From: Elusimicrobiota bacterium
GTDB lineage: Bacteria > Elusimicrobiota > Endomicrobiia > Endomicrobiales > JAPLKN01
Length of the DNA: 64,000 nt
Direction of reading: 5' to 3'
Assembly: GCA_042562855.1 (NCBI GenBank)
Contig: JBHPNE010000003.1
Span: 6,366 to 70,365 of the forward strand
Part shown: piece by piece, positions 9,445 through 25,167 of the stretch
Layout of the letters: each line of letters begins with the position of its first letter
Position numbering within the stretch: the stretch's first letter is position 1
Made by a program: the position numbers and the translations under genes
Notes under the pieces: generated by a model
The model's input: the letters and a program-made list of their open reading frames with translations, nothing else
What the model was told of the DNA's origin: nothing
Databases searched by the model: none

Positions 9445-10095
9445 ATGTTTAAAAAAGGTCTATTGGTTTTTATGATTTTGGTTTTATCCGGAAGTATTAC
9501 CGTAGCACTTGCCGGCAGAGGTGGAAATAAGGCAAAGAGAGTAAGGCAAGGCGTGCAAAGCGGAGAGCTCACCCGCGTTGAGGCAAAAAAGCTAAAGCGG
9601 GAGGGAAAGCAAATTAAAAGAATGAAAAATAGAGCAAAAGCAGACGGTGTTGTAACCGAAGGGGAAAAACAAAGAATCAAAGCAAAAACCAAGGCGCATA
9701 GCAGACATATTTATAAAGAAAAACATGACGCTCAAAAATCGGGTAAAAAAGTTGTGGTAAATAAAAATGTTGTAGTCGTAAAACCCAAACACCGTAAAAG
9801 AGTTGTTGTAAACAAAAATGTAGTTGTTGCCCCGGCACCGGCCATGGTTGGAGTAAAAAAGGCCAAGAAGAAAAAAACCCAGATGCAAAGAATCAGACAA
9901 GGGATGAAAAGCGGAGAACTTACCGAATCGGAAGCAAAGGATCTTTTAAGAGGGCAAAAGGAGCTTCAAAAATTAAGAAATGATGCAATGTCCGACGGAG
10001 TCATGACGAAGCAAGAGAAAAAGCTGATAAATAAGAAAAGCAAGGCAGAAAATAAGAAAATTTATGCAGAAAAACACGATGCCGAAAAAAGATAA
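9445..10095 (+). CDS. secreted lysine-rich protein with two ~65-aa internal repeats
   Basis: 216 aa with a Sec signal peptide (...ITVALA) and AGGAGG RBS. Repeat motif R.RQG..SGELT..EAK.L...DGV.T..E....K.....IY.EKHDA.K occurs twice, separated by VVVNKNVVV x2. Confidence 0.8.
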   Translation: MFKKGLLVFMILVLSGSITVALAGRGGNKAKRVRQGVQSGELTRVEAKKLKREGKQIKRMKNRAKADGVVTEGEKQRIKAKTKAHSRHIYKEKHDAQKSGKKVVVNKNVVVVKPKHRKRVVVNKNVVVAPAPAMVGVKKAKKKKTQMQRIRQGMKSGELTESEAKDLLRGQKELQKLRNDAMSDGVMTKQEKKLINKKSKAENKKIYAEKHDAEKR

Positions 10096-10189
10096 ATTAA
10101 AACATTAATTTATCCCACAATTGTATTTGAATTACAGCCATTTTTCTTTTTACAAACACACCTATTAAATACCTTTAAAAACGAGTATA

Positions 10190-10214
10190 AAACAGGTATA
10201 TTCTATACCTGTTT
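10190..10214. promoter_or_regulatory. 25-bp palindrome AAACAGGTATA-TTC-TATACCTGTTT (candidate regulator site, alternatively a weak terminator)
   Basis: Perfect 11-bp arms read directly. It lies 9 bp upstream of a TTGACA box. The core CAGGTATA/TATACCTG recurs at 21212-21231, with half-sites at 17164-17256. Confidence 0.55.
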
Positions 10215-10222
10215 CTTAATTC

Positions 10223-10251
10223 TTGACAATACTTTAGAATATTGTTATATA
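10223..10251 (+). promoter_or_regulatory. sigma70-like promoter TTGACA-N17-TATATA for the ArsR-type gene
   Basis: -35 at 10223-10228 and -10 at 10246-10251. The sequence CTTAATTcTTGACAAT is shared 16/17 with 21247-21262. Confidence 0.55.
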
Positions 10252-10267
10252 CATATCATGCAGAGGT

Positions 10268-10291
10268 GTGCATATGCGCAGATATGCATAT
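10268..10291. promoter_or_regulatory. operator-like duplicated self-palindromic TGCATATG boxes
   Basis: gTGCATATGcgcagaTATGCATATGt sits just downstream of the predicted -10, inside the leader of the ArsR-type gene. Confidence 0.35.
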
Positions 10292-10348
10292 GTCAAGAGT
10301 TTTAAAACAAGAAAGCATTGATTCGGCATTCTGTTCGGAGATAAGGTT

Positions 10349-10633
10349 ATGGAAGATCAGGTAAAGGTAATAAAAACATTGTCTGAAAAAAACAGGTTCG
10401 CGGTATTTTCATTCCTTTTAGAACGCAAAAAGGAATACTGTGTGCTTGATATTGCTAAGGAAACAAACCTTAAACAGTACAATGTTTCCAGGTATTTAAA
10501 AGAGTTAAAAAATGCTGACCTGGTTACCGAAAAACGGAAAGGGCAGTTTGTTTATTATAAGGTAAACAAAGCCAAAAGCGCTTATGCTCAGAATTTAATG
10601 AATTGTCTAAAAGATATGAAAAAGACAGGTTAA
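10349..10633 (+). CDS. ArsR/SmtB-family winged-helix transcriptional regulator
   Basis: 94 aa. The pattern RFAVFSFLL...EYCVLDIAKETNLKQYNVSRYLKELKNADLVTEKRKGQFVYYKV matches the ArsR HTH plus wing. Only one Cys, so no obvious metal site. Confidence 0.8.
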   Translation: MEDQVKVIKTLSEKNRFAVFSFLLERKKEYCVLDIAKETNLKQYNVSRYLKELKNADLVTEKRKGQFVYYKVNKAKSAYAQNLMNCLKDMKKTG

Positions 10634-10702
10634 CGAAAGAAAAGGCAAAAGAGACCAAAAATATAGATTTTTGAATAGGTTTTTAAAATTGAATAATAGG
10701 CC

Positions 10703-10731
10703 TTGGCAAATCGGGGGGTGTAGACTATAAT
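10703..10731 (+). promoter_or_regulatory. sigma70-like promoter TTGGCA-N17-TATAAT for the first fibre operon
   Basis: -35 at 10703-10708 and a perfect -10 TATAAT at 10726-10731. A second weaker candidate, TTGACT-N17-TACAAA, lies at 10751-10779. Confidence 0.45.
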
Positions 10732-10884
10732 ACGCGTTGTAGCAAGAAAATTGACTCAAAAATGTTAAACTTTTACAAAAAATTTTGAAGTCTTATGCAG
10801 TTTTTTCAACTGCGGGTTGTATAAAGAACCCACAGTGTGATTTTTTTGAGTTATACATACGGAAAGATCAAGGAGACTACAAAT

Positions 10885-11088
10885 ATGCTAAAAGAGTTTC
10901 GTTTGCCAGAGGATTATGAATACCAGAAGGACTTGATTGAGCAGGCCACTCTCGATAATCCCCTGTACATATCAAGGAAATCCTTGCCAATAGTTTTGAC
11001 ATTGTCGTACGAAGTCAAGATCGTTCCCATGGAAGGGGGCGATCTTTTTTTAATATATATGGATTGTTACAATTCACTGGAAAGTTAA
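10885..11088 (+). CDS. small hypothetical protein (67 aa), first gene of the fibre operon
   Basis: ATG is 9 nt after AAGGAG (10870-10875). The ORF-track start at 10837 (GTG) lacks an RBS. No signal peptide and no recognisable family. Confidence 0.5.
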   Translation: MLKEFRLPEDYEYQKDLIEQATLDNPLYISRKSLPIVLTLSYEVKIVPMEGGDLFLIYMDCYNSLES

Positions 11089-11121
11089 AGAAGCAAAAAT
11101 AAAAAAAAGGAGGACAAGGCA

Positions 11122-12360
11122 ATGGGCACAAAAGTTTTTTCAAAGTTGCTTGTAGTTGTCATGCTCATTTCCGTTCCGCTGACTTTGGCCTATGCGGGAC
11201 TGAAAACTGACAACTTCGAAGCAACGTACGGCGTAGTGGCAGGTACCGGTACTTTTAGTAGCGGCATATCTGCTAGCACAATTTCGGTAACGTCCCAGAC
11301 AGGTTTCAGACTGGGTGTTTCGACGACAGCAGGATATGTTCTAACCACAGATGCAAACGGTGTGGGTACATGGCAGCCATCGGTAGCAGGAGTTTCAGAT
11401 CATGATGCTCTCACATCAACTGGGACATTAACACATCTTGAGCTTGAAGCCCAAATTACTGCTCTCGATGCATCCACAATCACGTTGAGGACCGATGTAA
11501 ATACCCTCGATGCGTCCACGCAAACGCTGAGTACGGCTGTAAGTAACAGGTTGCTAAATACCAGCGATACGTTGACGGGAACATTAACCGTAACGGCCGG
11601 TGTTGCAGCATCTACCGGTGTATTTAGCGGAACTTTAGACGCAGACACGCTTAATACCGGAAATGGCGATTATGAGCTTTTTGCTATGAATCAGGATGTA
11701 GAGACGACTGATGATGTGACGTTCAGCTCACTATCGGTTACCAACCTCGGTGGTTTCAGAATAGGAGTATCCACGACAGCTGGATATGTTCTAACCACAG
11801 ATGCAAACGGTGTGGGTACATGGCAGCCATCGGTAGCAGGAGTTTCAGATCATGATGCTCTCACATCAACTGGGACATTAACACATCTTGAGCTTGAAGC
11901 CCAAATTACTGCTCTCGATGCGTCCACAATCACGTTGAGGACCGATGTAAATACCCTCGATGCGTCCACGCAAACGCTGAGTACGGCTGTAAGTAACAGG
12001 TTGCTAAATACTAGCGATACGTTGACGGGAACATTAACCGTAACGGCTGGTGTTGCAGCATCTACCGGTGTATTTAGCGGAACTTTAGACGCAGACACGC
12101 TTAATACCGGAAACGGCGATTACGAACTTTTCGCCATGGATCAGGATGTTCAGACGACTGATGATGTAACATTCAGCTCAGCCACAATTACCAATACTCT
12201 TACAGCAAGCGGCGATCTAGCACTTTCTGCTACATCCACTGTTTTATACGGACCGGATGATACAGACGGCAGCTGGAAAACCGTAAGGGTCGGCAACGAT
12301 CTCGTAACATATCGTTACGATACCGATACTTGGGTAGAAAAATACAGGGTTATTCCGTAA
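11122..12360 (+). CDS. secreted fibre-like protein with an internal 150-aa tandem duplication
   Basis: 412 aa with AGGAGG RBS and signal peptide ...LTLAYA. Thr/Ala/Gly/Asp-rich, with two copies of FR.GVSTTAGYVLTTDANGVGTWQPSVAGVSDHDALT... Confidence 0.85.
   Translation: MGTKVFSKLLVVVMLISVPLTLAYAGLKTDNFEATYGVVAGTGTFSSGISASTISVTSQTGFRLGVSTTAGYVLTTDANGVGTWQPSVAGVSDHDALTSTGTLTHLELEAQITALDASTITLRTDVNTLDASTQTLSTAVSNRLLNTSDTLTGTLTVTAGVAASTGVFSGTLDADTLNTGNGDYELFAMNQDVETTDDVTFSSLSVTNLGGFRIGVSTTAGYVLTTDANGVGTWQPSVAGVSDHDALTSTGTLTHLELEAQITALDASTITLRTDVNTLDASTQTLSTAVSNRLLNTSDTLTGTLTVTAGVAASTGVFSGTLDADTLNTGNGDYELFAMDQDVQTTDDVTFSSATITNTLTASGDLALSATSTVLYGPDDTDGSWKTVRVGNDLVTYRYDTDTWVEKYRVIP
11302..12201 (+). 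repeat. 2 x 450-bp in-frame tandem duplication
   Basis: 11302-11751 versus 11752-12201. The core 11332-11663 versus 11782-12113 differs at only 3 positions (11472, 11562, 11598), all third-codon and synonymous. The edges are clearly more diverged. Confidence 0.97.
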
Positions 12361-12421
12361 ACGTAATTTCGCCGGGATTATTTCATTGTTTATCGTGAAA
12401 AATCCCGCAGAGGTGAAAGAA

Positions 12422-13024
12422 ATGTCTAGGATAAAAGGAAACTTAATAAACGAAAGATTCTTAAAAGTTCTTGCCAGTGGTGCAGGTTTTGCATTCGGCA
12501 GGAAACGTTTATTGTCTTATTCCATTTTATTCTTATTTACAGGAGTTTCTTTTGCTCTGATAATCGGCGGAGGATACATAGTTGAATTCGCAAGACTTGT
12601 TGGCAGCGGCGGCCAAAGGTTGGCCAGCTCCAATTACGTTTTAAACGGAGCGGGTATAGAGAGTATAGGAGGTTTATCAATGGCGGGCGGAGTGTACTCA
12701 ATAGATACCAGCCAATCAACAGGCGTTGCCAAACTAGAGGCGGATTTAACAATTGCCCATTGCTATCCGAATCCATACAAGCCTAACTCAGGGTTAGGCC
12801 ATAACAAAATAACGTTTTCGCATACCACAGCGTATACGAAACTTATGGTGTTTAATATAGCAGGAGAACTGGTTTACAGTACAGAAGCCGATACGCCTAC
12901 AGGCGAACTTGAATGGAATGTGCGAAATAATGCAGGCGAAAAAGTTGCCTCAGGCGTATATCTGTATCTGTTAACCGATAATGAAGGACACAAGAAAGTA
13001 GGCAAGTTTGCGATTTTGAGGTAA
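12422..13024 (+). CDS. membrane-anchored mini-protein ending in a T9SS-type / FlgD-Ig-like C-terminal domain
   Basis: ATG follows GAGGTGA (the ORF-track TTG at 12386 is less likely). Has a basic N-region plus one hydrophobic helix. C-terminus: YPNPYKP...ITF...LMVFNIAGELVYS...WNVRNNAGEKVASGVYLYLLTDNEGHKKVGKFAILR. Confidence 0.75.
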   Translation: MSRIKGNLINERFLKVLASGAGFAFGRKRLLSYSILFLFTGVSFALIIGGGYIVEFARLVGSGGQRLASSNYVLNGAGIESIGGLSMAGGVYSIDTSQSTGVAKLEADLTIAHCYPNPYKPNSGLGHNKITFSHTTAYTKLMVFNIAGELVYSTEADTPTGELEWNVRNNAGEKVASGVYLYLLTDNEGHKKVGKFAILR

Positions 13025-13042
13025 ATCCTAAACGGAGGAGAA

Positions 13043-14173
13043 GTGCAAAGGCTTGGTTGGTTATCATTACTCTTAATATCAGTCTTTTTTGCAAGCGTCC
13101 TTTATGCGGCGGCTCCTACAAGCTTCCGTTATCAGGGCACCTTGAAAGAGAATGAAAAAGTGGTAGATGGTACAAAAACCATGCGTTTCCGTTTTACCAA
13201 TTCTGACGGTTCAACACAGTATTGGACCAGCGGGAATGTTGCCGTTACAGTTACGGGCGGTGTTTTCAGTACTGAACTTACTCCGTCGGTAGACTGGAAC
13301 AATATCCCCGGAGGAGGCTATTATCTGGAAATATCCGTTGAGGGAGAGGTTCTTCTTCCGAGAGAAAAAGTTTTATCAAACATTTATTCGCTTCATGCAA
13401 GAAATATAGATGACGGTATTGTAACACAGGCAAAATTAGACACTGGTGTAGCTGCTCAGTTGAATCTTGGTACTCATATTGCGACCACCACTCTTAATAT
13501 GTCTAACCAGCAAATATCAAATGTCGGAGCCTTCCATTATCCTGTTGGGCATACTGCCGGAGATGTTTTGACCGTAGATGCCGCAGGTAATGCTTCCTGG
13601 GGTAACCCGGGAGTTGTAGCTGGTACAGGTGATAGTTTGGGAAGTCATATTGCAACAATGACTCTTAATATGGCAAATTTTGCCATAATAAATTCAAGCG
13701 GTTTCCAGATGACTACCGGTGCATCTTCAGGCTATGTTTTAACTTCAGACGGCGCAGGTTATGCAAGCTGGGCTGCTCCAACAGGCGACAGCTTGGGTAC
13801 ACATGTAGCAACTCAAACATTAAATATGTCGGGTTTTGGAATTTCCAATGCTGCAAGTTTCCAGATGACAACAGGTGCATCTGCAGGCTACATTTTAAGT
13901 TCTGATGGTTCAGGTAATGCAGCTTGGATTTCTACATCAACATTTGCCGGAGACAATTTCGGAAATCATGTAGCTACTACAACAGTAAACATGAGTAACA
14001 ATGACATAATCAATGTAAAGGATGTTAAATCCAGCACAACATCAGTTTTTTATTTAGGTGATGAAAACACCGACGGAACATGGAGATTTCAGGTGGACGG
14101 TAATGGAGATTTAATATTTGAAAAGAGAATTGGCGGATCCTATGTGACACAAACCACGATAGACGCGCCCTAA
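13043..14173 (+). CDS. secreted fibre-like protein with ~50-aa repeats
   Basis: 376 aa with a GTG start behind GGAGGAG and a signal peptide. N-domain: FRYQGTLKENEKVVDGTKTMRFRF...YLEISVEGEVLLPREKV. Then four units of G(D)sLG.H.AT.TLNMs...I.N...F.MTTGAS.GY.L.SDG.G.A.W. Confidence 0.85.
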   Translation: MQRLGWLSLLLISVFFASVLYAAAPTSFRYQGTLKENEKVVDGTKTMRFRFTNSDGSTQYWTSGNVAVTVTGGVFSTELTPSVDWNNIPGGGYYLEISVEGEVLLPREKVLSNIYSLHARNIDDGIVTQAKLDTGVAAQLNLGTHIATTTLNMSNQQISNVGAFHYPVGHTAGDVLTVDAAGNASWGNPGVVAGTGDSLGSHIATMTLNMANFAIINSSGFQMTTGASSGYVLTSDGAGYASWAAPTGDSLGTHVATQTLNMSGFGISNAASFQMTTGASAGYILSSDGSGNAAWISTSTFAGDNFGNHVATTTVNMSNNDIINVKDVKSSTTSVFYLGDENTDGTWRFQVDGNGDLIFEKRIGGSYVTQTTIDAP

Positions 14174-14218
14174 ATCTAAGGAAAATAATTTCATAAAAAT
14201 ATATACGGATAAAAATAA

Positions 14219-14989
14219 ATGAAATTTTACATTAAATCAATTCTTTACTTTTCCATATTATTTATAACTGGTTTAGCAAATGCAGGTTTTGTTTCAGACA
14301 GGGTTGGAGTAGGTATCGTAAATCCAAATGATCTGGAAGTAGCAGGCAGAATCACAGTGTCTTCTTTTACAATGACAACCGGGGCTTCCAGCGGTTATGT
14401 ACTCAGGAATAGTGTTGGTGGAAACGCATATTGGTGTGCCTGCGTGGCTATTAGTTCAACAAATACTTGGTCAGGGGGTAATACCTATTTGGGTGCTTCA
14501 ACGATGACGGCCTTGACTCTCGATACAATAAATCACAAATCGGCATTGATAACTATAGCAAACGACAGCAACGACTTTGTAACATCCGGGACAGGAAATA
14601 TTGGTATCTCTACGGGAGTTCCGCAGGCAAAACTTGATGTTAACGGAGCTGTTTTAAGCAACCAAACTATACTTTCAAATACAGACGGTGGTGCAACTTT
14701 AGATTTTACCGGGATCAACAGCTACATTTATTATTATAATGCAAACGGGGCGTCATCGCCAACCAATGTAACAGCAATTACCGGAGGGGAAGCAGGGCAA
14801 ATGGTTACATTTTTTTATTACAGAACTGCTAGTCCCACAAATAGAAATCTGACAATAGTGAACAAGGCAGGAGCTAATGGGATTGTAACCGGCACAAACG
14901 GTAATATAACATTAACTGCAAACGATGGAGGTTGCCTAATTCTATGTTTTAACGGCACATATTGGTATATTGTTAACGCTCAGCTTTAA
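14219..14989 (+). CDS. secreted fibre paralog, shared N-module plus tip type A
   Basis: 256 aa. Signal peptide ...GLANA is followed by GFVSDRVGVGIVNPNDLEVAGR...SSFTMTTGASSGYVL...STNTWSGGNTY...GNIGISTGVPQAKLDVNGA. Ends FNGTYWYIVNAQL. Confidence 0.85.
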   Translation: MKFYIKSILYFSILFITGLANAGFVSDRVGVGIVNPNDLEVAGRITVSSFTMTTGASSGYVLRNSVGGNAYWCACVAISSTNTWSGGNTYLGASTMTALTLDTINHKSALITIANDSNDFVTSGTGNIGISTGVPQAKLDVNGAVLSNQTILSNTDGGATLDFTGINSYIYYYNANGASSPTNVTAITGGEAGQMVTFFYYRTASPTNRNLTIVNKAGANGIVTGTNGNITLTANDGGCLILCFNGTYWYIVNAQL

Positions 14990-15003
14990 AATTAGGAGAT
15001 ATA

Positions 15004-15750
15004 ATGATTAAAAAAATACTGTTTATCCCATTTTTGTTCTTATTTGCTTCGCCTCTTATCGGAGGAGTTGTTTCAGATAGGGTAGGCGTTGGCAATGTTT
15101 CTAATCCGACGGATCTTGAAGTAAGCGGAAGGGTTACGGCATCCTCTTTTACAATGACTACAAACGCCGTAGATGGATATATTATTATTTCAGATGCGGA
15201 TGGAAACGGAACCTGGCAGGTACCATATGGATTTGCACTGCTTGCTTCAACAAACACTTGGACAGGGGGAAACACCTGGTTACTACCTTCAACAATGACG
15301 ACTTTAGCAGTGGATACAATCAGTCACAACTCAAAGTTGATAACAATAGCAAATGACGGAAATGACGTGGTAACCTCCGGAACCGGCAATGTCGGTATCG
15401 GCACAATAACGCCTCAGAAAAAACTTGATGTGGAAGGGGCCATAGTAAGTAAACAAAATACAGCAACACTGAATGGTACAGCAACTACAATAGATGTTGC
15501 AGATTGCAACAGCGTTAGCTTAACAGTGAATTCCAGCACAAATTTAAACGGATTCACAAATGGTGTAGCTGGCCAAACCGTTTGCATATTTAATACTTCC
15601 ACCACGAATAATGTGGTTTTGGTCAACCAAAACGCTACAGGTACAGGCATTACAACAGGCACAGGTGGAAATGTTACCGTTACTGCTGAGGGTGGAGCGG
15701 TCTTCACTTTTGATGGTACCTATTGGTATATGGTTGGTTTGCAGCAGTAA
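15004..15750 (+). CDS. secreted fibre paralog, shared N-module plus tip type A
   Basis: 248 aa with AGGAG RBS. Same module order as the 14219 gene and ends FDGTYWYMVGLQQ. Confidence 0.85.
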   Translation: MIKKILFIPFLFLFASPLIGGVVSDRVGVGNVSNPTDLEVSGRVTASSFTMTTNAVDGYIIISDADGNGTWQVPYGFALLASTNTWTGGNTWLLPSTMTTLAVDTISHNSKLITIANDGNDVVTSGTGNVGIGTITPQKKLDVEGAIVSKQNTATLNGTATTIDVADCNSVSLTVNSSTNLNGFTNGVAGQTVCIFNTSTTNNVVLVNQNATGTGITTGTGGNVTVTAEGGAVFTFDGTYWYMVGLQQ

Positions 15751-15779
15751 TTTAGAGTTTTGAAAATGGCATTAATAAA

Positions 15780-17084
15780 ATGAAAAAATTCAAAGTATTC
15801 ATTTTAACAATTTTTTTTTTAAGTATTAATTCTTCCCTCTTTGCCTATGCGGGAAGCACCGCGGCATCTTTCCTTAAAATCGGCACTGGAGCAAGAAACC
15901 TTTCGATGGCAGGCGTGGGCGCAGTAAGCAGAGACGTTAATGCCATATACTACAATCCTTCAGGTCTTTGCTTTGTGGAAGAACAGCAGTTTACATTCAT
16001 GCATCTTAAGTGGTTTCAGGATATAAACTATCAAAACCTTTCCTATGCCGCATGCCCTATTGGTGAACATCATTTCGGAGCATCCATCAATTACCTTTCC
16101 ATGGACGAAATAGAAAAATACGATGTCAACGATAATCCTTTGGGAAGCACCTACAGTCCGTTTGATTTCTCCGCTACGTTTGCTTATGCCACGCCCTTGC
16201 GCGAAGATTTCTTCGTCGGAGCAAATTTGAAATTCATCAGTTCTCAGATTGATGATACCAATGCCTGGACAATAAGCGAAGATCTAGGAGCAACATATAC
16301 GGGATTTGAAAAATTCACTCTTGGTGCATCAATACAAAATATCGGAGGCAGTTTAAAATATGTGGCGGAGGAGGAGAAGCTCCCCTTAAATTTAAAAGTC
16401 GGCGCTGAATATGTATGGGAATATAACGACAAAATAAAGCCTAAATTTTATATGGATATTAATCAGAGCACGGAACTGGACCCATACATAAATGTTGCAG
16501 GAGAGATGGATTTCAAACCCTCAGACAATGACAAAATGTCTTATTCGTTAAGGTTAGGTTACAGAACAAGGGACAGATACTCAAGCGGCGTGGGTTTTTC
16601 CGCAGGTGCTGGAATAGTTTTTGATAATATGGGCCTGGATTTTGCATGGGCTCCTTACGGTGAGCTGGGAGAAACTTACGGAGTATCCCTAAACTTTAAG
16701 CTGGGGGTATGTAAAGACAAACCGAAAAAGAAAGAGCGTCCGAGAGAAGAAGTTCTGGAAAAAAAGAAGGAAAAAAAGGAAAAAACCAAACCGGCGTCCG
16801 TTGTTTCCCTCAATTTGTCGGGCAAAGCTGAAACAGCCAGCTCTATACGCTGGAAATGGAATAAAATCTCAAGTGCCTCCGGATACCGTATTTACGATGG
16901 CAAAACGGACAAATTGCTTGCAGAATTTTCAGATAATAAGACTTCCTGGCTTGAGTTAAAGCTAGAACCTGAAATGGAATACAGCCGCTACATAAAAGCA
17001 TATTATGCCCAAGGCACAGCAAGAGAAAAATCCTCAAAGAAAATATCGGTCAAAACATCCGTCAAAAAATGGAAGTTCTTCTAA
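15780..17084 (+). CDS. PorV/PorQ-like outer-membrane beta-barrel fused to a Lys/Glu linker and an FN3-like domain
   Basis: 434 aa. After the signal peptide comes GSTAASFLKIGTGARNLSMAGVGAVSRDVNAIYYNPSGL, the hallmark PorV/UPF0164-type N-terminus. An alternating barrel-like body follows. The KE-rich linker is at ~16710-16790. The C-terminal SIRWKWNKISSASGYRIYDG...LEPEMEYSRYIKAYY is FN3-like. Confidence 0.7.
   Translation: MKKFKVFILTIFFLSINSSLFAYAGSTAASFLKIGTGARNLSMAGVGAVSRDVNAIYYNPSGLCFVEEQQFTFMHLKWFQDINYQNLSYAACPIGEHHFGASINYLSMDEIEKYDVNDNPLGSTYSPFDFSATFAYATPLREDFFVGANLKFISSQIDDTNAWTISEDLGATYTGFEKFTLGASIQNIGGSLKYVAEEEKLPLNLKVGAEYVWEYNDKIKPKFYMDINQSTELDPYINVAGEMDFKPSDNDKMSYSLRLGYRTRDRYSSGVGFSAGAGIVFDNMGLDFAWAPYGELGETYGVSLNFKLGVCKDKPKKKERPREEVLEKKKEKKEKTKPASVVSLNLSGKAETASSIRWKWNKISSASGYRIYDGKTDKLLAEFSDNKTSWLELKLEPEMEYSRYIKAYYAQGTAREKSSKKISVKTSVKKWKFF
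15811..15820 (+). repeat. T10 homopolymer inside the signal-peptide codons of the PorV-like gene
   Basis: Ten consecutive T read directly (codons ATT TTT TTT TTA). Confidence 0.95.
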
Positions 17085-17218
17085 AAAATTCCGTCTCACC
17101 GAAGACTAAAAAACCTCAAAAAAAACACAACTTCTATTGCGATTTTAATAGGTAGATAGCGATTATACCTGTTTATTTTTAAAAAATGGGACACGATATT
17201 CTTTTTTTAAAAAACAGC

Positions 17219-17247
17219 TTGAAAAACAGGTTAAAATATTATAGTAT
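17219..17247 (+). promoter_or_regulatory. candidate promoter TTGAAA-N17-TAGTAT of the large regulator gene, overlapped by AAACAGGT half-sites
   Basis: -35 at 17219-17224 and -10 at 17242-17247. AAACAGGT occurs at 17224-17231 (spacer) and 17249-17256 (around the expected start site). TATACCTGTTT is at 17164-17174. Confidence 0.4.
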
Positions 17248-17301
17248 CAAACAGGTCAGATATTAAACTGTTTTGCAAAAATGGGTATTTGGGGATAAAT
17301 T

Positions 17302-20300
17302 GTGAATACAAAAGACAACAAAAAGCAATCTTCACTCTGTTTCGAGGGGATGGAACATTCCGCTATAATTTATGAGACCGAAGCAGAACATAAAGCGGTA
17401 GTATCCAAGTGGATAGTTGATGGGCTAAAGCAAAAGAAAAAAGTTCTGTATATTTTGGATAATCACTCGCGGGAAACAATAACCGGCTATTTAAAAGAAT
17501 CCGGTTTAGACCTCAAACAATATCTCGACTCCGGCCAGCTGCAAATCATTCCTCAAAGCGAGCTTTATGTTATTGATGGAAACTTTGATCCCGACCGCAT
17601 AGTCAGCTTTTACAAATCAGAAATAAAGAAAGCAAAAGATTCACACTTTTCAGGAGTGAACATAAGCGTAGAAATGTCCTGGATGAAAAGTTTTAAACCA
17701 GGCGATGAGAGATTGCTATCTTACAGAATGAAAATGTCGGATTTAATTCAAGAAAGTAAGATTTCTCTCCTTTGTCAGTTTAATAAAAATACGTTTAGCG
17801 CAGAAATGCTTTTGGCTGTTATAAGGAACCATTCTACTTTGTTCATTGGCAGCGAAAAGATTTCAAATTTAGCATCTTTGTCGGCAGAAGAATACCCCAA
17901 TCCGGACTCCGCAGAAGCAATTCTATCTCATACTATCAAGTCGCTCATTGTACAAAAAAATGGGAAAGCAAGGTTCGAGGCGCTTGAAGATGAGTTTTTG
18001 AGTCTTGCCGAAGCTCAATCCATTTGGATTTGGGAAACAGACAAGGAGGGAATATATAATTACTCAAACACAAAGGTTAAGGATTTTTTTGGAATTGATA
18101 AAAATGAAATTGTAGGGAAAATTTCTTTTGACTTTTTGCCGGAAGCGTTTGCAAAAGCAGTAAAAATAACGTGTGAAGAGCTAATGGCAGGAAAGATGCT
18201 TCAGAAGCAAATAGAAAACAGAGTTTTAGACAAGGAAGGGCATGAAGTTTTCTTTGAGTCAACAATTTGTGTTTTATTTGACAGTGAAAGAAATCACAAA
18301 GGCTTCAGGGGTACCGTAAAAGACATTACGGAAAAAAAACACGAAAATGAACAAATAGAAAAAAATAAGGTCTTATTTGAAAATATTTCCAGAATGGCTC
18401 CCGTGGGAATTTTCCGAACTGATGAGCATGGACTATGCACATATGTAAATGAAAAATGGCTTGAAATTGCGTCTCTAAAGCCACAAGAAGCTTTAGGGGA
18501 AGGCTGGACAAACGGTTTATATCCGGAAGATAAGGAAACGGTTTTTAAGGTATGGGCAAATGCTATTAAAAACAATTATAATTTCAAACTGGAATACAGA
18601 TTCGGGAAACCATATTCAAAAATTACGTGGGTATTGGGCCAGGCGATGGCCGAAAAAGATTCAGACGGAAAAATAACCGGATATGTCGGTACAATAACGG
18701 ACATAACTGAACGGAAAAAATATGAAACGCAAATCAGCGAGTCCGAAGAAAAAATACGTACCATCATAGAATCTAACAGAGATATTATTTTTTCTCTCGA
18801 TTCCGGCGGTTTTGTAAAATATATCTCGCCTCAGATTTCTAAATACGGGTATAACGAAGAAGATTTGATGGAGCATAAATTCGACAAGTTTATTCACCCA
18901 CAGGACGTTGTTTCGGAATCTAATATCTTTAAACAAATCCTCGAGTTTGATTTGGCGACACCTCCGCATTCATTCCGGTTTAAGAAAAAGGACGGCCAGT
19001 TTTGTTATTTGGAGGCGTTATCTAGGAAGAGGGTGCTCGATAACGGATCTGTTGAAGTTATATCAACAGTGAGAGACGTTACTTCACGTATTCGCTCTGA
19101 AAAAGCCTTAAGCATAATAAATAAAACGTTTTTGTCTTTCGGGCCGAATCCTTTGGAAAATATCGGCCGCATGGCCCATGCTGCAGGAGAAATATTGGAA
19201 GCTGTATGTGTGCTTTATAACCGCAAAGAGGGGGATATGCTTCATACTTTAGCGGGCTGGCAGATTCCTCGGGATATGCCGCTTTCCGACAAGGGTAAGG
19301 GACATATTTGTTTTGATGTTATTGACAACGGCGGGGATGAGCCGTTTGTACTGGATAATCTTCAAGAATCGTCTTATATGAACACCGATCCTAACGTAAA
19401 AAAATACGGGCTTAAAACTTACGCAGGGTTTGCAGTAAAAGTTGGAACCCAGGCAGTAGGTGCTTTTGGGGCCGTTTATCAGGATGATAGAAAATTTGAA
19501 ACTTTCGAGCTTAGCATTTTAAAGATTATGGGATTGGCAGTCTCTATTGAAGAAGAGCGTTTAGCAGATAAAGATAAAATAGTCGAGACGTCCCGGCTTT
19601 TTTCTTCAATTACTCAGTTGGCTCCGGTCGGAATATACAGGAAGGATATTGAGGACAAATACGTATACACAAATAAACGATGGGGCGAAATTTCAGGGCT
19701 CTCGTGTGAGGAAGCCTTGGGAGATGGTTGGAAAAAGGCTTTGTATCCGCAAGATAAAAGCTATGTTGATAAAGAGTGGGAAAATTCGGTTGCAACAGGG
19801 AAACCGTACAGACTAGAGTACAGATTCCTAAGAACCGACGGAACAATATCCTGGGTATTAGACCGTTTATTGCCGGAAAAAGATAAAGAAGGGAACATTA
19901 CTGGATATATTGGCGCCATAACGGACCTTACAGGCATAAAAGAACTGAAAGCAAAACTGGATAAAAGCGAAGAAAATTACAAAAATATTTTAGAAAGTAC
20001 CGTGGATATTATTCAAGTTGTTGATTTCGACGGGACTATTAAATTTTGCAGCCCTCAAATTGAGCAGCTGGGCGATACTGTTGAGAATGCGGTCGGTAGA
20101 AATGTGGCTGAAATTGTTCATCCAGAGGACAGAAAAATGCTGTTTGATGCTTTTGAGAGTGTTGCAAAAGGCAATGATGGCGGAAGCGTTGTAGCACGTT
20201 ACAAAAAGCCGAACGGTGAATATGTATCTTTGGAAGGCTCCGGAAAGTTAAGCCGGGACAGGTTTAATAATCCGCAAATGACGGTTGTGTTAAGAGATGT

Positions 20301-21150
20301 TTCTGAGCGTATTGAATATGAAAAAAAGCTGGCGTTCAGGACAATTGTTATGGAGACTCAAATTCACCTATCTCCCGATGCTGTTTTGGTAGTGGACAGA
20401 GAAGCCAAACCATACCTTCATAACAAGAAGTTTATAGAATTATTTGATACCCCTGAGGACTTCTTGTCACAGAAGGGCCAAGAGAAGGTTTGGAAAATGC
20501 TTACGGAAAAAATTAAAGATCATGAAAGTTTTTTTGAGAAAATCAAGTATTTATATTCGCAGCCTAAAGAAGTCGGGTCTGGTGAGCTTGAAATGAAAAA
20601 CGGAATGTTCGTGAAATGGAATTCTGTACCACTTTTTGATAAAAAGAAGAATTTTAATTATGGCAGGGCATGGTTTTTTAGTGATATCACAAATTCAAAA
20701 AAGGAAAATTTGGATCTTTCTTTACTTTCAAAAAATCTTGAGAATAAAACAATAGCTTTAAAAGAGCTTCTTGCCCAGGTAGAGATAGAGAAAAAAGAAT
20801 TCGGAGAAAATTTGTTAAAAAATATAGAAAGGACTGCCCGTCCTCTCATCGGAAAGATAAGAAGAATGAAGGTTCCCAAAATCAGCAAATATCTTGAAAT
20901 GCTGGAAAAGGATCTGGACAATCTTGCATCTCCTTTCGGAAAGATAGTTGAATCTCCAAGGACCAGGCTTTCTCCTCGTGAAGTGGAAATTTGTAACATG
21001 ATACGAAATGGTTATAAGAATGCAAAAATTGCTAAGATCCTGAAGGTTTCAGGCCACACCATTCAAACCCATAGAAGGGCCATCCGAAAGAAGCTTGGCA
21101 TTGGCAGAAAAAAGATTAATTTATCCACCTATCTGCAGCAGGGCCATTAG
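17302..21150 (+). CDS. cytoplasmic MEDS - multi-PAS - GAF - PAS - LuxR/GerE HTH regulator
   Basis: 1282 aa with a GTG start. N-terminus is MEDS-like (HSAIIYETEAEHKAVVSKWIVDGLKQKKKVLYILD...). About six PAS-like units each end in ...DIT.RK-type motifs. GAF region around HAAGEILEAVCVLYN...GAFGAVYQD. C-terminal LSPREVEICNMIRNGYKNAKIAKILKVSGHTIQTHRRAIRKKLGI. Confidence 0.85.
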   Translation: MNTKDNKKQSSLCFEGMEHSAIIYETEAEHKAVVSKWIVDGLKQKKKVLYILDNHSRETITGYLKESGLDLKQYLDSGQLQIIPQSELYVIDGNFDPDRIVSFYKSEIKKAKDSHFSGVNISVEMSWMKSFKPGDERLLSYRMKMSDLIQESKISLLCQFNKNTFSAEMLLAVIRNHSTLFIGSEKISNLASLSAEEYPNPDSAEAILSHTIKSLIVQKNGKARFEALEDEFLSLAEAQSIWIWETDKEGIYNYSNTKVKDFFGIDKNEIVGKISFDFLPEAFAKAVKITCEELMAGKMLQKQIENRVLDKEGHEVFFESTICVLFDSERNHKGFRGTVKDITEKKHENEQIEKNKVLFENISRMAPVGIFRTDEHGLCTYVNEKWLEIASLKPQEALGEGWTNGLYPEDKETVFKVWANAIKNNYNFKLEYRFGKPYSKITWVLGQAMAEKDSDGKITGYVGTITDITERKKYETQISESEEKIRTIIESNRDIIFSLDSGGFVKYISPQISKYGYNEEDLMEHKFDKFIHPQDVVSESNIFKQILEFDLATPPHSFRFKKKDGQFCYLEALSRKRVLDNGSVEVISTVRDVTSRIRSEKALSIINKTFLSFGPNPLENIGRMAHAAGEILEAVCVLYNRKEGDMLHTLAGWQIPRDMPLSDKGKGHICFDVIDNGGDEPFVLDNLQESSYMNTDPNVKKYGLKTYAGFAVKVGTQAVGAFGAVYQDDRKFETFELSILKIMGLAVSIEEERLADKDKIVETSRLFSSITQLAPVGIYRKDIEDKYVYTNKRWGEISGLSCEEALGDGWKKALYPQDKSYVDKEWENSVATGKPYRLEYRFLRTDGTISWVLDRLLPEKDKEGNITGYIGAITDLTGIKELKAKLDKSEENYKNILESTVDIIQVVDFDGTIKFCSPQIEQLGDTVENAVGRNVAEIVHPEDRKMLFDAFESVAKGNDGGSVVARYKKPNGEYVSLEGSGKLSRDRFNNPQMTVVLRDVSERIEYEKKLAFRTIVMETQIHLSPDAVLVVDREAKPYLHNKKFIELFDTPEDFLSQKGQEKVWKMLTEKIKDHESFFEKIKYLYSQPKEVGSGELEMKNGMFVKWNSVPLFDKKKNFNYGRAWFFSDITNSKKENLDLSLLSKNLENKTIALKELLAQVEIEKKEFGENLLKNIERTARPLIGKIRRMKVPKISKYLEMLEKDLDNLASPFGKIVESPRTRLSPREVEICNMIRNGYKNAKIAKILKVSGHTIQTHRRAIRKKLGIGRKKINLSTYLQQGH

Positions 21151-21211: not shown

Positions 21212-21231
21212 CAGGTATATTTATATACCTG
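21212..21231. promoter_or_regulatory. 20-bp palindrome CAGGTATAT-TT-ATATACCTG
   Basis: 9-bp arms read directly, preceded by AA as at 10190. Lies 22 bp upstream of a TTGACA box. Confidence 0.55.
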
Positions 21232-21253
21232 ATAGGTACCAGATACTTAATTA

Positions 21254-21282
21254 TTGACAATTGATTGAAATTTCATTATATT
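21254..21282 (+). promoter_or_regulatory. sigma70-like promoter TTGACA-N17-TATATT for the paralog trio
   Basis: -35 at 21254-21259 and -10 at 21277-21282. CTTAATTaTTGACAAT matches the 10216-10231 module. Confidence 0.55.
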
Positions 21283-21315: not shown

Positions 21316-22329
21316 ATGAAATTCTATTCTAAATGGTTGATACTGTTTTTAATAGTTTTATGCAGTAAAAATCTTTCCGCCGGTTTTGTTACCGATAAGC
21401 TGGGTGTAGGTACGGCAAATCCCACGGAAGTAGAAGTAATAGGCACTGTTAAAGCCTCTTCTTTTACAATGATAACAGGGGCCTCCGACGGATACATCCT
21501 TACCACTGATGCATCGGGCAACGGCACATGGCAAACAGCTTCTTTTCCTGATCCCGCACTTCTTATTAACTCAACAAATACATGGACAGCGGCAAACACC
21601 TGGCTTTCCTCATCGACATTCAATCAAAATTCGCTTGACAAGGATTTTCGCATAAAGGGACAGACCGATGCGAATTTGTTTTTCGCAGACGCCTCTGCCA
21701 ACCGCATCGGTATAGGGACCGATTCGCCTGTAGAAAAACTCACCGTTAACGGAAGGTTGGCAATAGCTGAAGGAGATCAGTGTGTCCCTTATTCAGGATA
21801 CGGAAACCTTTGCGTGGATAACGTTAATAAGCAGCTGTCTCATATGGAAGCTTTAGGCAGTATCGAGCTGATAACCCCAAGCTATGCTATTTTTCAGGAA
21901 CAGCAGCCGTCGGGAACTTCAGGCGGCGGATTTTCGGCAGGTTCATGGGTACAAAGAACTTTAAATACTACCATTGCTTCAAGAGGAACTAGCATAACCC
22001 GTTCCGGAAGCGATATAATTCTTTCTTCGGGTACCTACCAGGTAATGATAGAAGCGCCCGCTTACAGGGTAAATTTACATCAAACCAGGTTCTATAATGT
22101 TACGGACGGAGCTACGGCATTTTCCGGCAGTTCAGAATATTCAAGATCTTCGGCTGTGGGCGATTCTACCCCAAGCTTATTGCACGGAGCTGTAGTGATA
22201 ACGGATCAGAAAACTTTCAGGATAGAGCACCGGTGCGGAACCGCAAATGCTACTGACGGTTTTGGAAATGCGTCCGGATTCGGGGAAACAGAAGTTTATA
22301 CCTATTGTTTTATACAAAGGTGCAAGTAG
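21316..22329 (+). CDS. secreted fibre paralog, shared N-module plus tip type B
   Basis: The ATG at 21316 (MKFYSKW...) is preferred over the ORF-track TTG at 21301. Signal peptide ...NLSA, then GFVTDKLGVGTANPTEVEV...SSFTMITGASDGYILTTDASGNGTW...STNTW...NRIGIGTDSPVEKLTVNG. C-terminal tip contains SGTSGGGFSAGSWVQRTLN... Confidence 0.85.
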   Translation: MKFYSKWLILFLIVLCSKNLSAGFVTDKLGVGTANPTEVEVIGTVKASSFTMITGASDGYILTTDASGNGTWQTASFPDPALLINSTNTWTAANTWLSSSTFNQNSLDKDFRIKGQTDANLFFADASANRIGIGTDSPVEKLTVNGRLAIAEGDQCVPYSGYGNLCVDNVNKQLSHMEALGSIELITPSYAIFQEQQPSGTSGGGFSAGSWVQRTLNTTIASRGTSITRSGSDIILSSGTYQVMIEAPAYRVNLHQTRFYNVTDGATAFSGSSEYSRSSAVGDSTPSLLHGAVVITDQKTFRIEHRCGTANATDGFGNASGFGETEVYTYCFIQRCK

Positions 22330-22340
22330 AAGGGTAAAAA

Positions 22341-23354
22341 ATGAAGCTTAAAAATTTTATAATTTTAAATACAATAACTTTTCTTATTTTTTTCGTGCAA
22401 TTGCTTAATGCAGGAATAGTGACTGACAGGGTTGGGATCGGTTCTATAAGCGACCCGACAGATCTTGAAGTGTTAGGAAGAGTAACTTGCTCAACTTTTA
22501 CGATGACAACCGGAGTATCTGCGGGATATGTGCTTAAATGCGATGCAGCAGGAGCGGCATACTGGGCCGCAGCCGTTGACTGCAGTATTTTAAATGCCAC
22601 AAACACATGGACTGCACCCAACTCCTGGACATCTTCATCTATATTCAATGCAAATATGCAGGATAAGGATTTCAGGATAAAGGGGCAGTTAGACGCGGAT
22701 CTTTTCTTTGCTGATGCTTCTCAAAACGAAGTCGGTATTGGCACATCGGCTCCTCACGCAGAGATTACCTTAAACGGCCGGCTTGCATTGGCAGAAACTA
22801 CCGTACCGACTGCATCATCAGGATACGGAAAACTATTTTGCAAAGCAACTGACAGCCAGCTTTATTATCAGGACGGTACAGGAGATACTGTTCTAGTCAG
22901 CGGCCAGTTTGCTTCCATTGAAGACCAAAAAACATCAGGAACTAACGGCGGAACCTTTACCTCAGGTGCCTGGCAGACAAGGACTTTGAACGCAGTTCAG
23001 GCTTCACGTGGAAGCTTTTTTTCGCTTTCGTCAAACCAGGTTACTTTGGCCGCAGGAACATACAGAATAATGGCGTCGGCGCCGGCATATTACGTAGGGG
23101 CGCATAAATTGAGGTTACGAAATATTACAGACGGTACGACGGCTGTTTATGGCACAGCAGCGCTTTCAAATACTTCTACCCAGGCTTCTTCAGGAAGAAG
23201 TGTATGCCAGGGAATAGTTACCATTGCGGCCCAAAAGACTTTTGAAGTCCAGCATTATTGCGCGAGCACAAGAGCTACTGACGGTTTAGGGCAGGCGGCC
23301 GGTTTTGGCGATACGGAAATATATGCGATTTTATGCATACAAAAGATAAGATAG
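22341..23354 (+). CDS. secreted fibre paralog, shared N-module plus tip type B
   Basis: 337 aa with the same architecture. Tip: SGTNGGTFTSGAWQTRTLN...GTYRIMASAPAYYVGAHKLRLRNITDG...KTFEVQHYC...DGLGQAAGFGDTEIY. Confidence 0.87.
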   Translation: MKLKNFIILNTITFLIFFVQLLNAGIVTDRVGIGSISDPTDLEVLGRVTCSTFTMTTGVSAGYVLKCDAAGAAYWAAAVDCSILNATNTWTAPNSWTSSSIFNANMQDKDFRIKGQLDADLFFADASQNEVGIGTSAPHAEITLNGRLALAETTVPTASSGYGKLFCKATDSQLYYQDGTGDTVLVSGQFASIEDQKTSGTNGGTFTSGAWQTRTLNAVQASRGSFFSLSSNQVTLAAGTYRIMASAPAYYVGAHKLRLRNITDGTTAVYGTAALSNTSTQASSGRSVCQGIVTIAAQKTFEVQHYCASTRATDGLGQAAGFGDTEIYAILCIQKIR

Positions 23355-23400
23355 TGCGGTTTTTTATTCTATATAGTTTTAAGTTTAAAAGGCGAAAAAA

Positions 23401-24423
23401 ATGGAATTAATGAGAAAGTTTAAAATTTTTATTACCAGCCTTTTTATATTTTTAGTTTTAATAACAAATATTCTGCATGCGGGCATTACGACCGATAGGA
23501 TCGGCATAGGGTCGGTAAGTAATCCGACAGACTTAGAAGTCAGCGGAAAAATCACGGCTTCATCATTTACCATGACAACTTCTCCCACAAACGGTTATGT
23601 TCTTCAATGCGATGCTTCTGGAATCGCTTCCTGGGCGGATGCGTCTGACTGCAACCTTTTGACCATGGCAAATACTTGGACGGCACCCAATTCCTGGCTT
23701 TCATCTTCAACGTTTAACGCGAATTCCGGTGACAACGATTTGCAGATAAAGGGGCAAACCAATGCCAATGTTTTTTTTGCCGATGCTTCTTTTGACAGGA
23801 TAGGTGTGGGAACAGGAACTACGAATGAAAAACTTACCGTCAACCATCATTTTTCCCTGGTCGAAACCACCGTTCCGACCGCATCATCAGGATACGGAAA
23901 AATATTCTGTAAATCAAGTGATGGTCAGTTTTATTTTCAGGATGACTCCGGAGACACGGTTTTGCTTTGTAAACATTTTGTATCTATTCGGGACGAAAAA
24001 GCCTCGGGTACCGCCGGCGGAACTTTTACCTCAGGCGCATGGCAGACTAGGACTTTGAATGCCGTTCAGGCGGCAAGCGGAGACTTTTATTCGCTTTCGT
24101 CAAATCAGATAACTTTAGCGACGGGTACTTACAGAATTCTTGCATCGGCTCCTGCATATTATGTGGATTCGCATAAGGCAAGGTTTCAGAATGTTACCGA
24201 CGCAACAACAGCCATTTACGGTGCTTCTGCGTTGGCTAAGGCTTCGACTCAGGCTTCATCGGGAAGAAGTATTGTAATGGGGGTAATTACGATAGCTGCG
24301 CAAAAAACTTTTGAACTCCAGCATAGGTGTGCAACCACGAGAAATACAGACGGTTACGGACAGGCGGCGAATTTCGGCGAAACTGAAGTTTACTCGGCCA
24401 TCTGCATCATGAGACTAAAGTAG
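23401..24423 (+). CDS. secreted fibre paralog, shared N-module plus tip type B
   Basis: 340 aa, the closest paralog of the 22341 gene. Contains a T8 run at 23771-23778. Its stop codon lies inside the left REP-like hairpin. Confidence 0.87.
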   Translation: MELMRKFKIFITSLFIFLVLITNILHAGITTDRIGIGSVSNPTDLEVSGKITASSFTMTTSPTNGYVLQCDASGIASWADASDCNLLTMANTWTAPNSWLSSSTFNANSGDNDLQIKGQTNANVFFADASFDRIGVGTGTTNEKLTVNHHFSLVETTVPTASSGYGKIFCKSSDGQFYFQDDSGDTVLLCKHFVSIRDEKASGTAGGTFTSGAWQTRTLNAVQAASGDFYSLSSNQITLATGTYRILASAPAYYVDSHKARFQNVTDATTAIYGASALAKASTQASSGRSIVMGVITIAAQKTFELQHRCATTRNTDGYGQAANFGETEVYSAICIMRLK

Positions 24424-24438
24424 GGACAGCGCCTACTT
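24418..24438. repeat. REP-like hairpin, left copy (7-bp stem, 7-nt loop)
   Basis: Read directly. Contains the stops of the 23401 gene (+) and of the transposase (-). Confidence 0.9.
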
Positions 24439-25110
24439 TATGGCTTCTTTTCTCGGCCTTCCCATCTTTGGGGAAGTTAATTTCTTACCAAACTTATTTT
24501 CTAAGTTTTTAATAAATGCAGTAGCTCCAAAAGGCAGACCGGACAACGTGTGTTTTCGTATTGCAGTAACGGCATTCTCTTCTTCTTGCCCATCAATGTA
24601 TTTTTTCCATTTATTTATATTCATATCTAAATAACGAAAAATATTTTCCAATTTTATTTTAGGTACTCCCAAGCCGGTGTTAGCTAAGGCGCTAGACCAT
24701 TCCCAATCCCACGGTTTCTTAACTTGTTTTGATCGGACAGGGTTTTTCTCAATGTATCTTGCGGCGGAAAGTAAATGAATTTCATCCAAAACGCAAGAAA
24801 AAAACCGTCCTTGCCACAGATGACCGCAAGAATTATTTTTCCGATTAAAATATTGAGCATATTTCATGTGTGTTGCATTGAAAGTTCTTGAAAGAGAATC
24901 TTCTTTTGAGGGGATTGCTATAAAGTGGACATGATTACTCATAAGACAGTAAGATAAAATACTTAGTCCATATTTTTTGCTGTATTCGCCAATACAGGAA
25001 AGATAATATTTCCTGTCAATGTCATCGAAAAAAACAGTTTGTTTGTTGTTGCCCCGCTGTGTGATGTGATGGGGGAGGCCGATCGCTACAATTCTGGCTG
25101 TTCGTGGCAT
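24433..25110 (-). CDS. IS200-like / RayT-like HUH tyrosine (Y1) transposase
   Basis: 225 aa. N-terminal LPHHITQRGNNKQTVFF, HUH motif SNHVHFIAIP, and catalytic-Tyr region ARYIEKNPVR. Confidence 0.85.
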   Translation of the reverse strand: MPRTARIVAIGLPHHITQRGNNKQTVFFDDIDRKYYLSCIGEYSKKYGLSILSYCLMSNHVHFIAIPSKEDSLSRTFNATHMKYAQYFNRKNNSCGHLWQGRFFSCVLDEIHLLSAARYIEKNPVRSKQVKKPWDWEWSSALANTGLGVPKIKLENIFRYLDMNINKWKKYIDGQEEENAVTAIRKHTLSGLPFGATAFIKNLENKFGKKLTSPKMGRPRKEAIK

Positions 25111-25146: not shown

Positions 25147-25167
25147 AAGTAGGCGCTGTCCCTACTT
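25147..25167. repeat. REP-like hairpin, right copy (loop inverted relative to the left copy)
   Basis: Read directly. Contains the stop codon of the aminotransferase gene (-). Confidence 0.9.

Follow-up and report, generated by a model that had tools for sequence, protein, structure and literature searches.

We analysed a 64,000-nucleotide (nt) stretch of DNA from an Elusimicrobiota bacterium (assembly GCA_042562855.1, contig JBHPNE010000003.1, positions 6,366–70,365; hereafter the window), in which two related palindromes, S1 and S2, each stand upstream of a sigma-70-type promoter in a locus rich in fibre-like surface proteins. To the left of S1 (10190-10214) lie housekeeping genes for PBP2, RodA and RNase G, together with a gene for a 216-amino-acid (aa) protein. 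To its right, with the genes on the forward strand, follow a gene for an ArsR/SmtB-type helix-turn-helix (HTH) protein (10349-10633), a run of fibre-like and export-related genes (11122-17084), the gene for a very large one-component regulator (17302-21150), S2 (21212-21231) and three paralogous tail-fibre-like genes (21316-24423). A transposase gene on the reverse strand (24433-25110), resembling REP-associated tyrosine transposases (RAYTs), marks the right end of the locus. Here, we describe S1 and S2 as predicted operators of the large regulator encoded between them.

S1 has perfect 11-bp arms, AAACAGGTATA-TTC-TATACCTGTTT, around the core GGTA-N7-TACC (10195-10209), which reads GGTATATTCTATACC. 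A -35 module, CTTAATTcTTGACAAT (10215-10230, forward strand), follows directly, with CTTAATTC (10215-10222) occupying the space between the palindrome and the -35 hexamer TTGACA (10223-10228). The -10 hexamer TATATA (10246-10251), ending in A and not in T, lies 17 nt past the -35, which places the predicted start near 10258 and the centre of S1 at about -56. An earlier note, made from the sequence alone, had already described the perfect inverted repeat, the TTGACA-N17-TATATA downstream of it, and distances from palindrome centre to -35 centre of 23.5 bp at S1 and 35.0 bp at S2; direct reading of the sequence bore out all of these, and corrected the gap between S1 and its -35 from 9 to 8 bp.

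S2 begins 62 nt past the regulator stop codon (21150) and 85 nt ahead of the ATG at 21316. It is a palindrome with 9-bp arms, CAGGTATAT-TT-ATATACCTG, with the core GGTA-N8-TACC, and is followed in order by ATAGGTACCAGATA, CTTAATTA, TTGACA (21254-21259), 17 nt, and TATATT (21277-21282). This promoter matches the consensus at 11 of 12 positions and has a predicted start near 21289, so that S2 is centred at about -67.5. The earlier note had stated that the S1 core and its -35 module recur at this second site; both do recur (the module as CTTAATTaTTGACAAT, 21246-21261, forward strand), but the two palindromes are not isometric, with N7 between the half-sites in S1 and N8 in S2.

Counts within the window set these elements well apart from the background. 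The palindrome CAGGTATA-N2-5-TATACCTG occurs twice in the 64 kb and in none of 100 shuffles, the 8-mer CAGGTATA is present in six copies (0.98 expected), and there are three perfect palindromes whose arms span 11 bp or more (0.37 expected). The S1/S2 core is limited to three intergenic regions of the locus, plus one copy within a gene. When anchored at CTTAATT, the S1 and S2 promoter regions have 36 of 60 bases in common, against a background of 17.1 +/- 3.6. The palindrome is a real regulatory element and not a chance occurrence.

The third intergenic copy, S3 (17147-17174), lies upstream of the regulator gene and is degenerate: it reads AATAGGTA-N9-TATACCTGTTT, with GGTA-N11-TACC, and then TTTATTTTT, and its right arm (17164-17174) is identical to that of S1. 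Given the N11 spacing and the T-tract, we rejected S3 as a third operator; it is probably a weak terminator or a lone, stray half-site rather than an operator of the family type described below. Several other half-site-like elements lacking the family geometry occupy the same upstream region (17085-17301), including AAACAGGT at 17224 and at 17249, and a strong, isolated half-site, AAAATGGGTATT (17278-17289, forward strand), stands just ahead of the GTG start of the regulator. The latter scores 14.1 bits with a half-site position weight matrix (PWM), the third best in the window. These elements may serve autoregulation.

The regulator itself (17302-21150, forward strand) is a 1282-aa one-component protein in which Pfam recognises a MEDS domain and about seven PAS domains, with a GerE/LuxR HTH at the C-terminus; these are its only Pfam domain types, and no autoinducer-binding domain, receiver domain or phosphorylation site was seen by this means. 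The DNA-binding domain is a generic LuxR/FixJ/NarL HTH, and its PDB matches include RhlR, SdiA, LasR, RcsB, NarL and EL222. A narrower affiliation emerges from the C-terminal 81 aa, which align without gaps and at 40% identity to PAS-LuxR proteins of Desulfobacterales, including the pre-HTH linker and the tail IRKKxGI..NL.T.L. A profile of this subfamily, built without the window sequence, matches residues 1196-1280 of the protein (E 4.4e-19), which is its sole match in the window.

Homologue searches returned no orthologous loci of the S1/S2 region, and footprinting among orthologues failed since the lineage is hardly sampled. A scan of GTDB genomes for AACAGGTATA-N2-5-TATACCTG gave at least 119 loci across all phyla, most of them random scatter; the genome from which the window comes is not among the matches listed. 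Among the matches listed, at least 10 loci of Desulfobacterales/Desulfobacula represent a single conserved locus with AACAGGTATA-TTT-TATACCTG, where a gene for a ~295-aa PAS and GerE regulator has the palindrome starting at its stop codon in nine loci and about 80 nt further on in one, and the gene that follows encodes a PaaK-like ligase or a DctP solute-binding protein. In four Flavobacteriaceae loci and others from the same scan, AACAGGTATA..TATACCTG lies between A-runs and T-runs and resembles a bidirectional intrinsic terminator. With such terminator-like copies in unrelated genomes, the bare palindrome is not diagnostic without its context.

To remove the ascertainment bias of a search by motif, relatives of the C-terminal domain were retrieved from metagenomes by protein alone, giving 80 loci and, from these, 69 non-redundant regulators. 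In the 250 nt past the 69 stop codons, GGTA-N7-TACC occurs 23 times (1.31/kb), compared with six occurrences in the 277 kb of these loci that served as control DNA (0.022/kb), an enrichment of about 60-fold. The spacing is strict, with N6 found once and N8 never. The 23 sites yield a 27-nt consensus, ATAA[CT][AG]GGTAT-N5-ATACC[CT][GA]TTAT; their flanks differ by clade (CAGGTAT, TGGGTAT or GGGGTAT) while core and spacing are constant. The position expected of a family site is 0-170 nt past the regulator stop codon, in front of a downstream gene with the same orientation.

What follows the palindrome in these loci is equally regular: a C-rich TACCC box about 11 bp on, a ATATACCTC box about 11 bp further, and then the TTG of the -35. 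This TTG, nearly invariant and the only conserved part of the -35, stands at GGTA+39 in 12 loci and at GGTA+41 in eight, and 19 of 20 loci have a hexamer beginning with TA 17 nt beyond it, followed by the target gene. Most of the -10 hexamers end in A (TATTAA, TACAAA, TATAAA) at the 17-nt spacing, as does that of S1. The target genes vary by locus, and among them are those for a PaaK-like ligase, a DctP solute-binding protein and small PilZ proteins; the site is therefore tied to the regulator rather than to the gene it controls. The link between this type of regulator and this type of palindrome, with fixed phasing to the -35, holds family-wide.

Two forms of this cassette deserve mention in their own right. 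In the ten or more loci from Desulfobacula and other Desulfobacterales, a ~295-aa PAS-LuxR gene is followed by the palindrome, two more phased TACC boxes, a TTG -35 and the gene for either a DctP TRAP solute-binding protein or a PaaK-like CoA ligase, and the whole looks like an uncharacterised switch for the uptake or activation of an aromatic or organic acid. In another clade (recognition helix TVKTHRRSIRKKL, operator AATGGGTAT-N5-ATACCCATT; seven loci on metagenome contigs), a small protein of about 120-130 aa is encoded after the operator; one of these is a PilZ protein by Pfam, and the others begin with the same RxxxR-type N-terminus. A PilZ protein is encoded in the window too (28426-28857), with no family site upstream of its gene.

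Scored with a PWM built from the 23 foreign sites, with the window excluded, S1 reaches 28.8 bits, close to the training median of 29.4 (minimum 11.5), while nowhere else in the 64 kb does the score rise above 8.5. The two window sites depart from the family in different ways. S1 has the family core (GGTA-N7-TACC, as GGTAT-N5-ATACC), lies 7.1 kb upstream of the regulator gene instead of past its stop codon, and has its -35 at GGTA+28, which is 11-12 bp shorter than usual, leaves a 13-column gap in the alignment, and brings the palindrome one helical turn closer to the promoter, a variant unseen in the family. S2 differs from the family core by one base (N8, in none of the 23 sites) and otherwise aligns along its whole length: it follows the regulator stop codon at the usual distance with the next gene on the same strand, the TACC of its GGTACC (21235-21240) takes the position of the C-rich TACCC box one turn past the palindrome, and TTGACA stands at GGTA+40 with TATATT after 17 nt. 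Where the earlier note took S1 as the reference site, it is thus S2 that has the usual architecture, and S1 that is the variant. As the -35 of S1 is 11-12 bp nearer, both window promoters carry half-sites at about -63 and -52, and the note's proposal that the two sites lie on the same helical face stands. Its broader idea of a LuxR-HTH operator upstream of the -35 is supported by the comparative evidence and is essentially right, with the difference that centres at -56 and -67.5 are not lux-box-like positions overlapping the -35. A predicted cognate regulator, with the C-terminal domain of the subfamily, is encoded in cis.

We consider it likely that S1 and S2 are operators of the MEDS-PAS-LuxR regulator and that they control the two promoters. 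A dimer of the C-terminal GerE/LuxR HTH would recognise the inverted repeat AACAGGTAT-N5(6)-ATACCTGTT and sit on one face of the helix upstream of TTGACA-17-TATAT[AT], controlling transcription, most likely by activation through contact with RNA polymerase, while the MEDS and PAS domains would set the timing of dimerisation and binding. From S1, the predicted target is the arsR-type gene, to which the fibre and PorV genes behind it can probably be added; from S2, the three tail-fibre-like genes directly downstream of the regulator. We infer the binding, the activation and the extent of the transcripts from sequence and comparison. Activation is suggested by the family promoters, in which only the TTG of the -35 is conserved, as is typical of activator-dependent promoters.

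Several points weigh against this interpretation. Both window promoters have a perfect TTGACA, unusual for activator dependence, so the case for activation is weaker here than in the family and the dependence is not self-evident. The spacer of S2 exceeds that of every one of the 23 family sites by one base, and S1 is both far from the regulator gene and one turn closer to its -35 than any family site. The window recognition helix, TIQTHRRAIRKK, resembles those of clades with TGGGTAT operators, and the window operators read CAGGTAT, as in the EFYRKS clade; a simple code from the recognition helix to half-site positions -2/-1 did not hold for the window protein. The lineage is also too poorly sampled for orthologous loci to show conservation of S1 and S2 themselves, and a paralogous regulator encoded beyond the searched 64 kb could be the true binder. 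Finally, a canonical terminator (11017-11046, then T7) and a promoter-like site (10703-10731) lie between S1 and the fibre/PorV genes, which makes it uncertain that the S1 transcript reaches them.

The most serious of the alternatives, though an unlikely one, accepts a regulator of the family type at S1 and S2 and differs in its effect or identity: the protein would repress or modulate strong promoters, or the binder would be a paralogue encoded outside the window. Promoters this close to consensus (TTGACA-17-TATAT[AT]) are expected to fire unaided, the half-site-like elements at 17224, 17249 and 17278 coincide with a promoter-like element of the regulator gene and with its ribosome-binding region in a manner resembling autorepression, and the sequence covered is 64 of the contig's 76 kb. 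Set against this, S1 and S2 lie wholly upstream of the -35 and in helical phase with it, the weak family -35, with only its TTG conserved, is a signature of activation, and the only subfamily member in the window directly adjoins S2. We regard as improbable a second account, in which the palindromes are RNA hairpins that terminate the transcripts arriving from upstream (9445-10095, 15780-17084 and 17302-21150) and recur as a preferred terminator stem. All three copies do lie 60-95 nt past a stop codon on the coding strand, and S1 was rated terminator-like, with an 11-pair stem, the tail CTTAATTCTT (5 T in the 8 nt after CCTG) and an RNA fold of -13.8 kcal/mol (z = -4.6); S3 has the tail TTTATTTT, with 7 T in the 8 nt after CCTG, on a poor stem, and of the at least 119 scan loci in unrelated genomes, 20 have this palindrome with a T-rich tail and resemble terminators. 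Yet the stems are AT-rich (three G-C pairs of 11 in S1), S2 has no T-tract (its tail is ATAGGTAC) and an ordinary fold (z = -1.9), and the canonical terminator at 11017-11046, GC-rich and followed by its T7 run, offers a nearby comparison. Nor would a terminator keep its sequence, a fixed 5-nt centre and a constant spacing to the promoter that follows it in genomes so far apart. S1 may have a dual role, and S3 may act as a terminator.

Binding of S1 and S2 by the ArsR/SmtB-type protein, the alternative that the earlier note had named, appears still less probable, and we found nothing that speaks for this protein in particular beyond the position of its gene, the first after S1, and the habit of its family. 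Autoregulation is common among ArsR-family proteins, which use inverted repeats close to the promoters of their own genes. The first downstream open reading frames in the 23 family loci, though, read as PaaK-like, DctP-type or PilZ-type and never as ArsR (judged from N-terminal sequences, with Pfam on three), and S2 adjoins the LuxR-type gene, 11 kb from arsR. A separate and unique repeat at +11 to +30 of the predicted arsR leader fits a repressor operator better than S1, which lies upstream of the -35. Least credible of all is an origin of S1 and S2 as mobile palindromes of the repetitive extragenic palindromic (REP) type, tied to the RAYT-like transposase. This Y1 transposase does lie at the right edge of the locus (65.6 bits with NCBIfam REP_Tyr_transpos, below the cut-off of 80), but its gene is flanked by an unrelated palindrome pair of its own, TAAAGTAGG-N7-CCTACTTTA, for which reason a REP origin was rejected, and the few window copies of the S1/S2 core are confined, apart from the one inside a gene, to intergenic regions of this locus.

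Taken as operators of the large regulator, S1 and S2 belong to a known kind of switch, a LuxR-type operator upstream of a sigma-70 promoter. By design, the closest known systems are the PAS-LuxR regulators of Streptomyces, with EL222 also close. The Streptomyces proteins (PimM, PteF and CfaR) likewise are one-component regulators with a PAS sensor and a C-terminal LuxR/GerE HTH, and bind palindromes at the promoters of neighbouring genes (PMC9774167), as is predicted for the window protein. They recognise the 16-bp CTVGGGAWWTCCCBAG, located within the -35 region (PMC9774167), whereas the sites here have the core GGTAT-N5-ATACC, are centred 23.5 bp (S1) or about 35 bp (S2, as in the family) before the -35, and do not conform to the PimM type. 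The window protein further differs in its added MEDS domain and about seven PAS domains, and in coming from Elusimicrobiota and not Actinomycetota.

EL222 resembles the window regulator in the fusion of a PAS-type (LOV) sensor to a LuxR-type HTH, and the subfamily profile matches its HTH (8a5r/3p7n, E 5e-6 to 8e-6). In EL222, the signal frees the HTH for dimerisation on DNA, and a similar signal-released dimerisation is the mechanism that we would envisage for the window regulator; EL222 differs in having a single LOV domain, a flavin chromophore and a different DNA target. With the class II sites of LuxR, TraR and LasR, the window sites have in common an inverted repeat of about 20 bp upstream of a sigma-70 promoter and a (predicted) dimeric LuxR-type HTH. 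Lux boxes are centred near -42.5 and overlap the -35, and quorum-sensing LuxR regulators carry an autoinducer-binding domain; neither the centres of S1 and S2 nor the domains of the window regulator agree with this. The NarL/FixJ proteins with phased heptamer sites have the same HTH fold and several half-sites along the promoter, comparable to the family's TACC elements about 11 bp apart down to the -35; unlike them, the window protein has neither a receiver domain nor a phosphorylation site, and the half-site sequences differ.

The regulator subfamily is apparently undescribed in the open-access literature, in the text of which we found nothing relevant on it, on MEDS-LuxR proteins or on PAS-LuxR regulators of Desulfobacula. 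We tentatively propose, as a plausible reading of the whole, an undescribed cross-phylum PAS-LuxR subfamily that comes as a compact cassette (regulator gene, GGTAT-N5-ATACC at or after its stop codon, TACC half-sites phased at about 11 bp, a TTG-only -35, and a single target gene or operon). In this Elusimicrobiota genome, the sensor would have grown to MEDS and about seven PAS domains, and the cassette would have been duplicated onto a second promoter, one turn closer, and wired to tail-fibre-like surface proteins exported via a PorV-like channel. For widespread PAS-LuxR regulators, this offers a testable operator consensus and promoter architecture (-35 at +39 to +41), and the fixed layout of regulator, operator and target should permit regulon prediction straight from metagenomes. 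The compact cassette could also be tried as a portable switch. To our knowledge, almost no experimental genetics exists for Elusimicrobiota, where a very large multi-PAS sensor is here linked to a locus of tail-fibre-like surface proteins. The understanding of LuxR-type regulation is unchanged by this finding.

The first gene past S1 (10349-10633, forward strand) encodes the 94-aa ArsR/SmtB-type protein (Pfam HTH_5; NCBIfam HTH_metalloreg, 65.9 bits), which had no homologue in a search of 5.8 billion proteins and no record in the assemblies index. An inverted repeat, TGCATAT-GCGCAG-ATATGCA (10269-10288), lies in the 5′ leader predicted for this gene. The repeat occurs once in the window, where 0.01 would be expected, folds into a hairpin as RNA, and is a candidate ArsR-type autorepressor site or leader hairpin; it is more likely that the ArsR-type protein acts there than at S1. 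Together, the LuxR-type and ArsR-type regulators might form a two-tier circuit. Just upstream of S1, a perfect palindrome with 10-bp arms and consisting almost entirely of A and T, GATAAATTAA-AACA-TTAATTTATC (10091-10114), overlaps the stop codon of the gene for the 216-aa protein. Rfam returned nothing above chance for 10000-11200.

Between arsR and the first fibre gene lie 490 nt (10634-11121), with no match in Rfam, Pfam or PHROG. The promoter-like site in this stretch is a near-consensus TTGGCA-17-TATAAT (10703-10731), and a 67-aa open reading frame with a good ribosome-binding site (10885-11088) contains the canonical terminator, a 12-bp stem (11017-11046) followed by T7. The stretch could hold a small protein gene or a small RNA.

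The genes of the following run (11122-17084, forward strand), probably read from the S1 promoter by read-through, encode repeat-rich, fibre-like secreted proteins, a protein with a C-terminal sorting domain of the type IX secretion system (T9SS) type, and a PorV/PorQ-family outer-membrane protein (PorV_fam, 180 bits). The fibre genes adjoin those for the PorV/PorQ-family protein and for the protein with the T9SS-type sorting domain, although Elusimicrobiota are not known for type IX secretion. The three paralogous genes past S2 (21316-24423, forward strand), predicted targets of the S2 promoter, encode signal-peptide proteins of about 337-340 aa whose C-terminal domain is phage tail fibre-like (phrog_24210 tail fiber, E 8.7e-32). 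The N-terminal domain of these proteins is widespread: their nearest relatives have only this half in common with them and come from unrelated contexts, one of them a phage. At least five fibre-like proteins from the two gene groups have the common N-terminal motif ...TDRVGVG..NPTDLEV.G....SSFTMTT....GYVL..D..G...W, and the domain has hundreds of relatives and no Pfam family, some of them in phage tail-fibre gene clusters.

The RAYT-like gene (24433-25110, reverse strand) is flanked by two inverted copies of its palindrome (24416-24440 and 25147-25169; 23 nt, 100% complementary), with no other copy in the window, and these form a REP/REPIN-like pair. Beyond the locus, the closest named homologues of the Obg protein encoded in the window are from Endomicrobium, Endomicrobiales and Elusimicrobia at 63-68% identity, and the genome is therefore that of an Elusimicrobiota member that has diverged from these. 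The window has seven perfect TTGACA-N16-18-TAnnn[AT] sites, of which four or five fall in the intergenic 6% of the sequence, a concentration from which it follows that the organism uses canonical sigma-70-type promoters; a lenient promoter scan of the window showed no enrichment (41 sites, 40.3 expected), so that perfect -35 matches alone are informative. By Rfam, a full-length transfer-messenger RNA gene lies at 63321-63703 (reverse strand, 157 bits), which ARAGORN does not report. Lastly, a 600-nt intergenic region between divergent genes (32011-32623) contains two long perfect palindromes (32108-32141 and 32478-32507; 14-bp and 12-bp arms, 6-nt loops), both A/T-rich with T/A runs.

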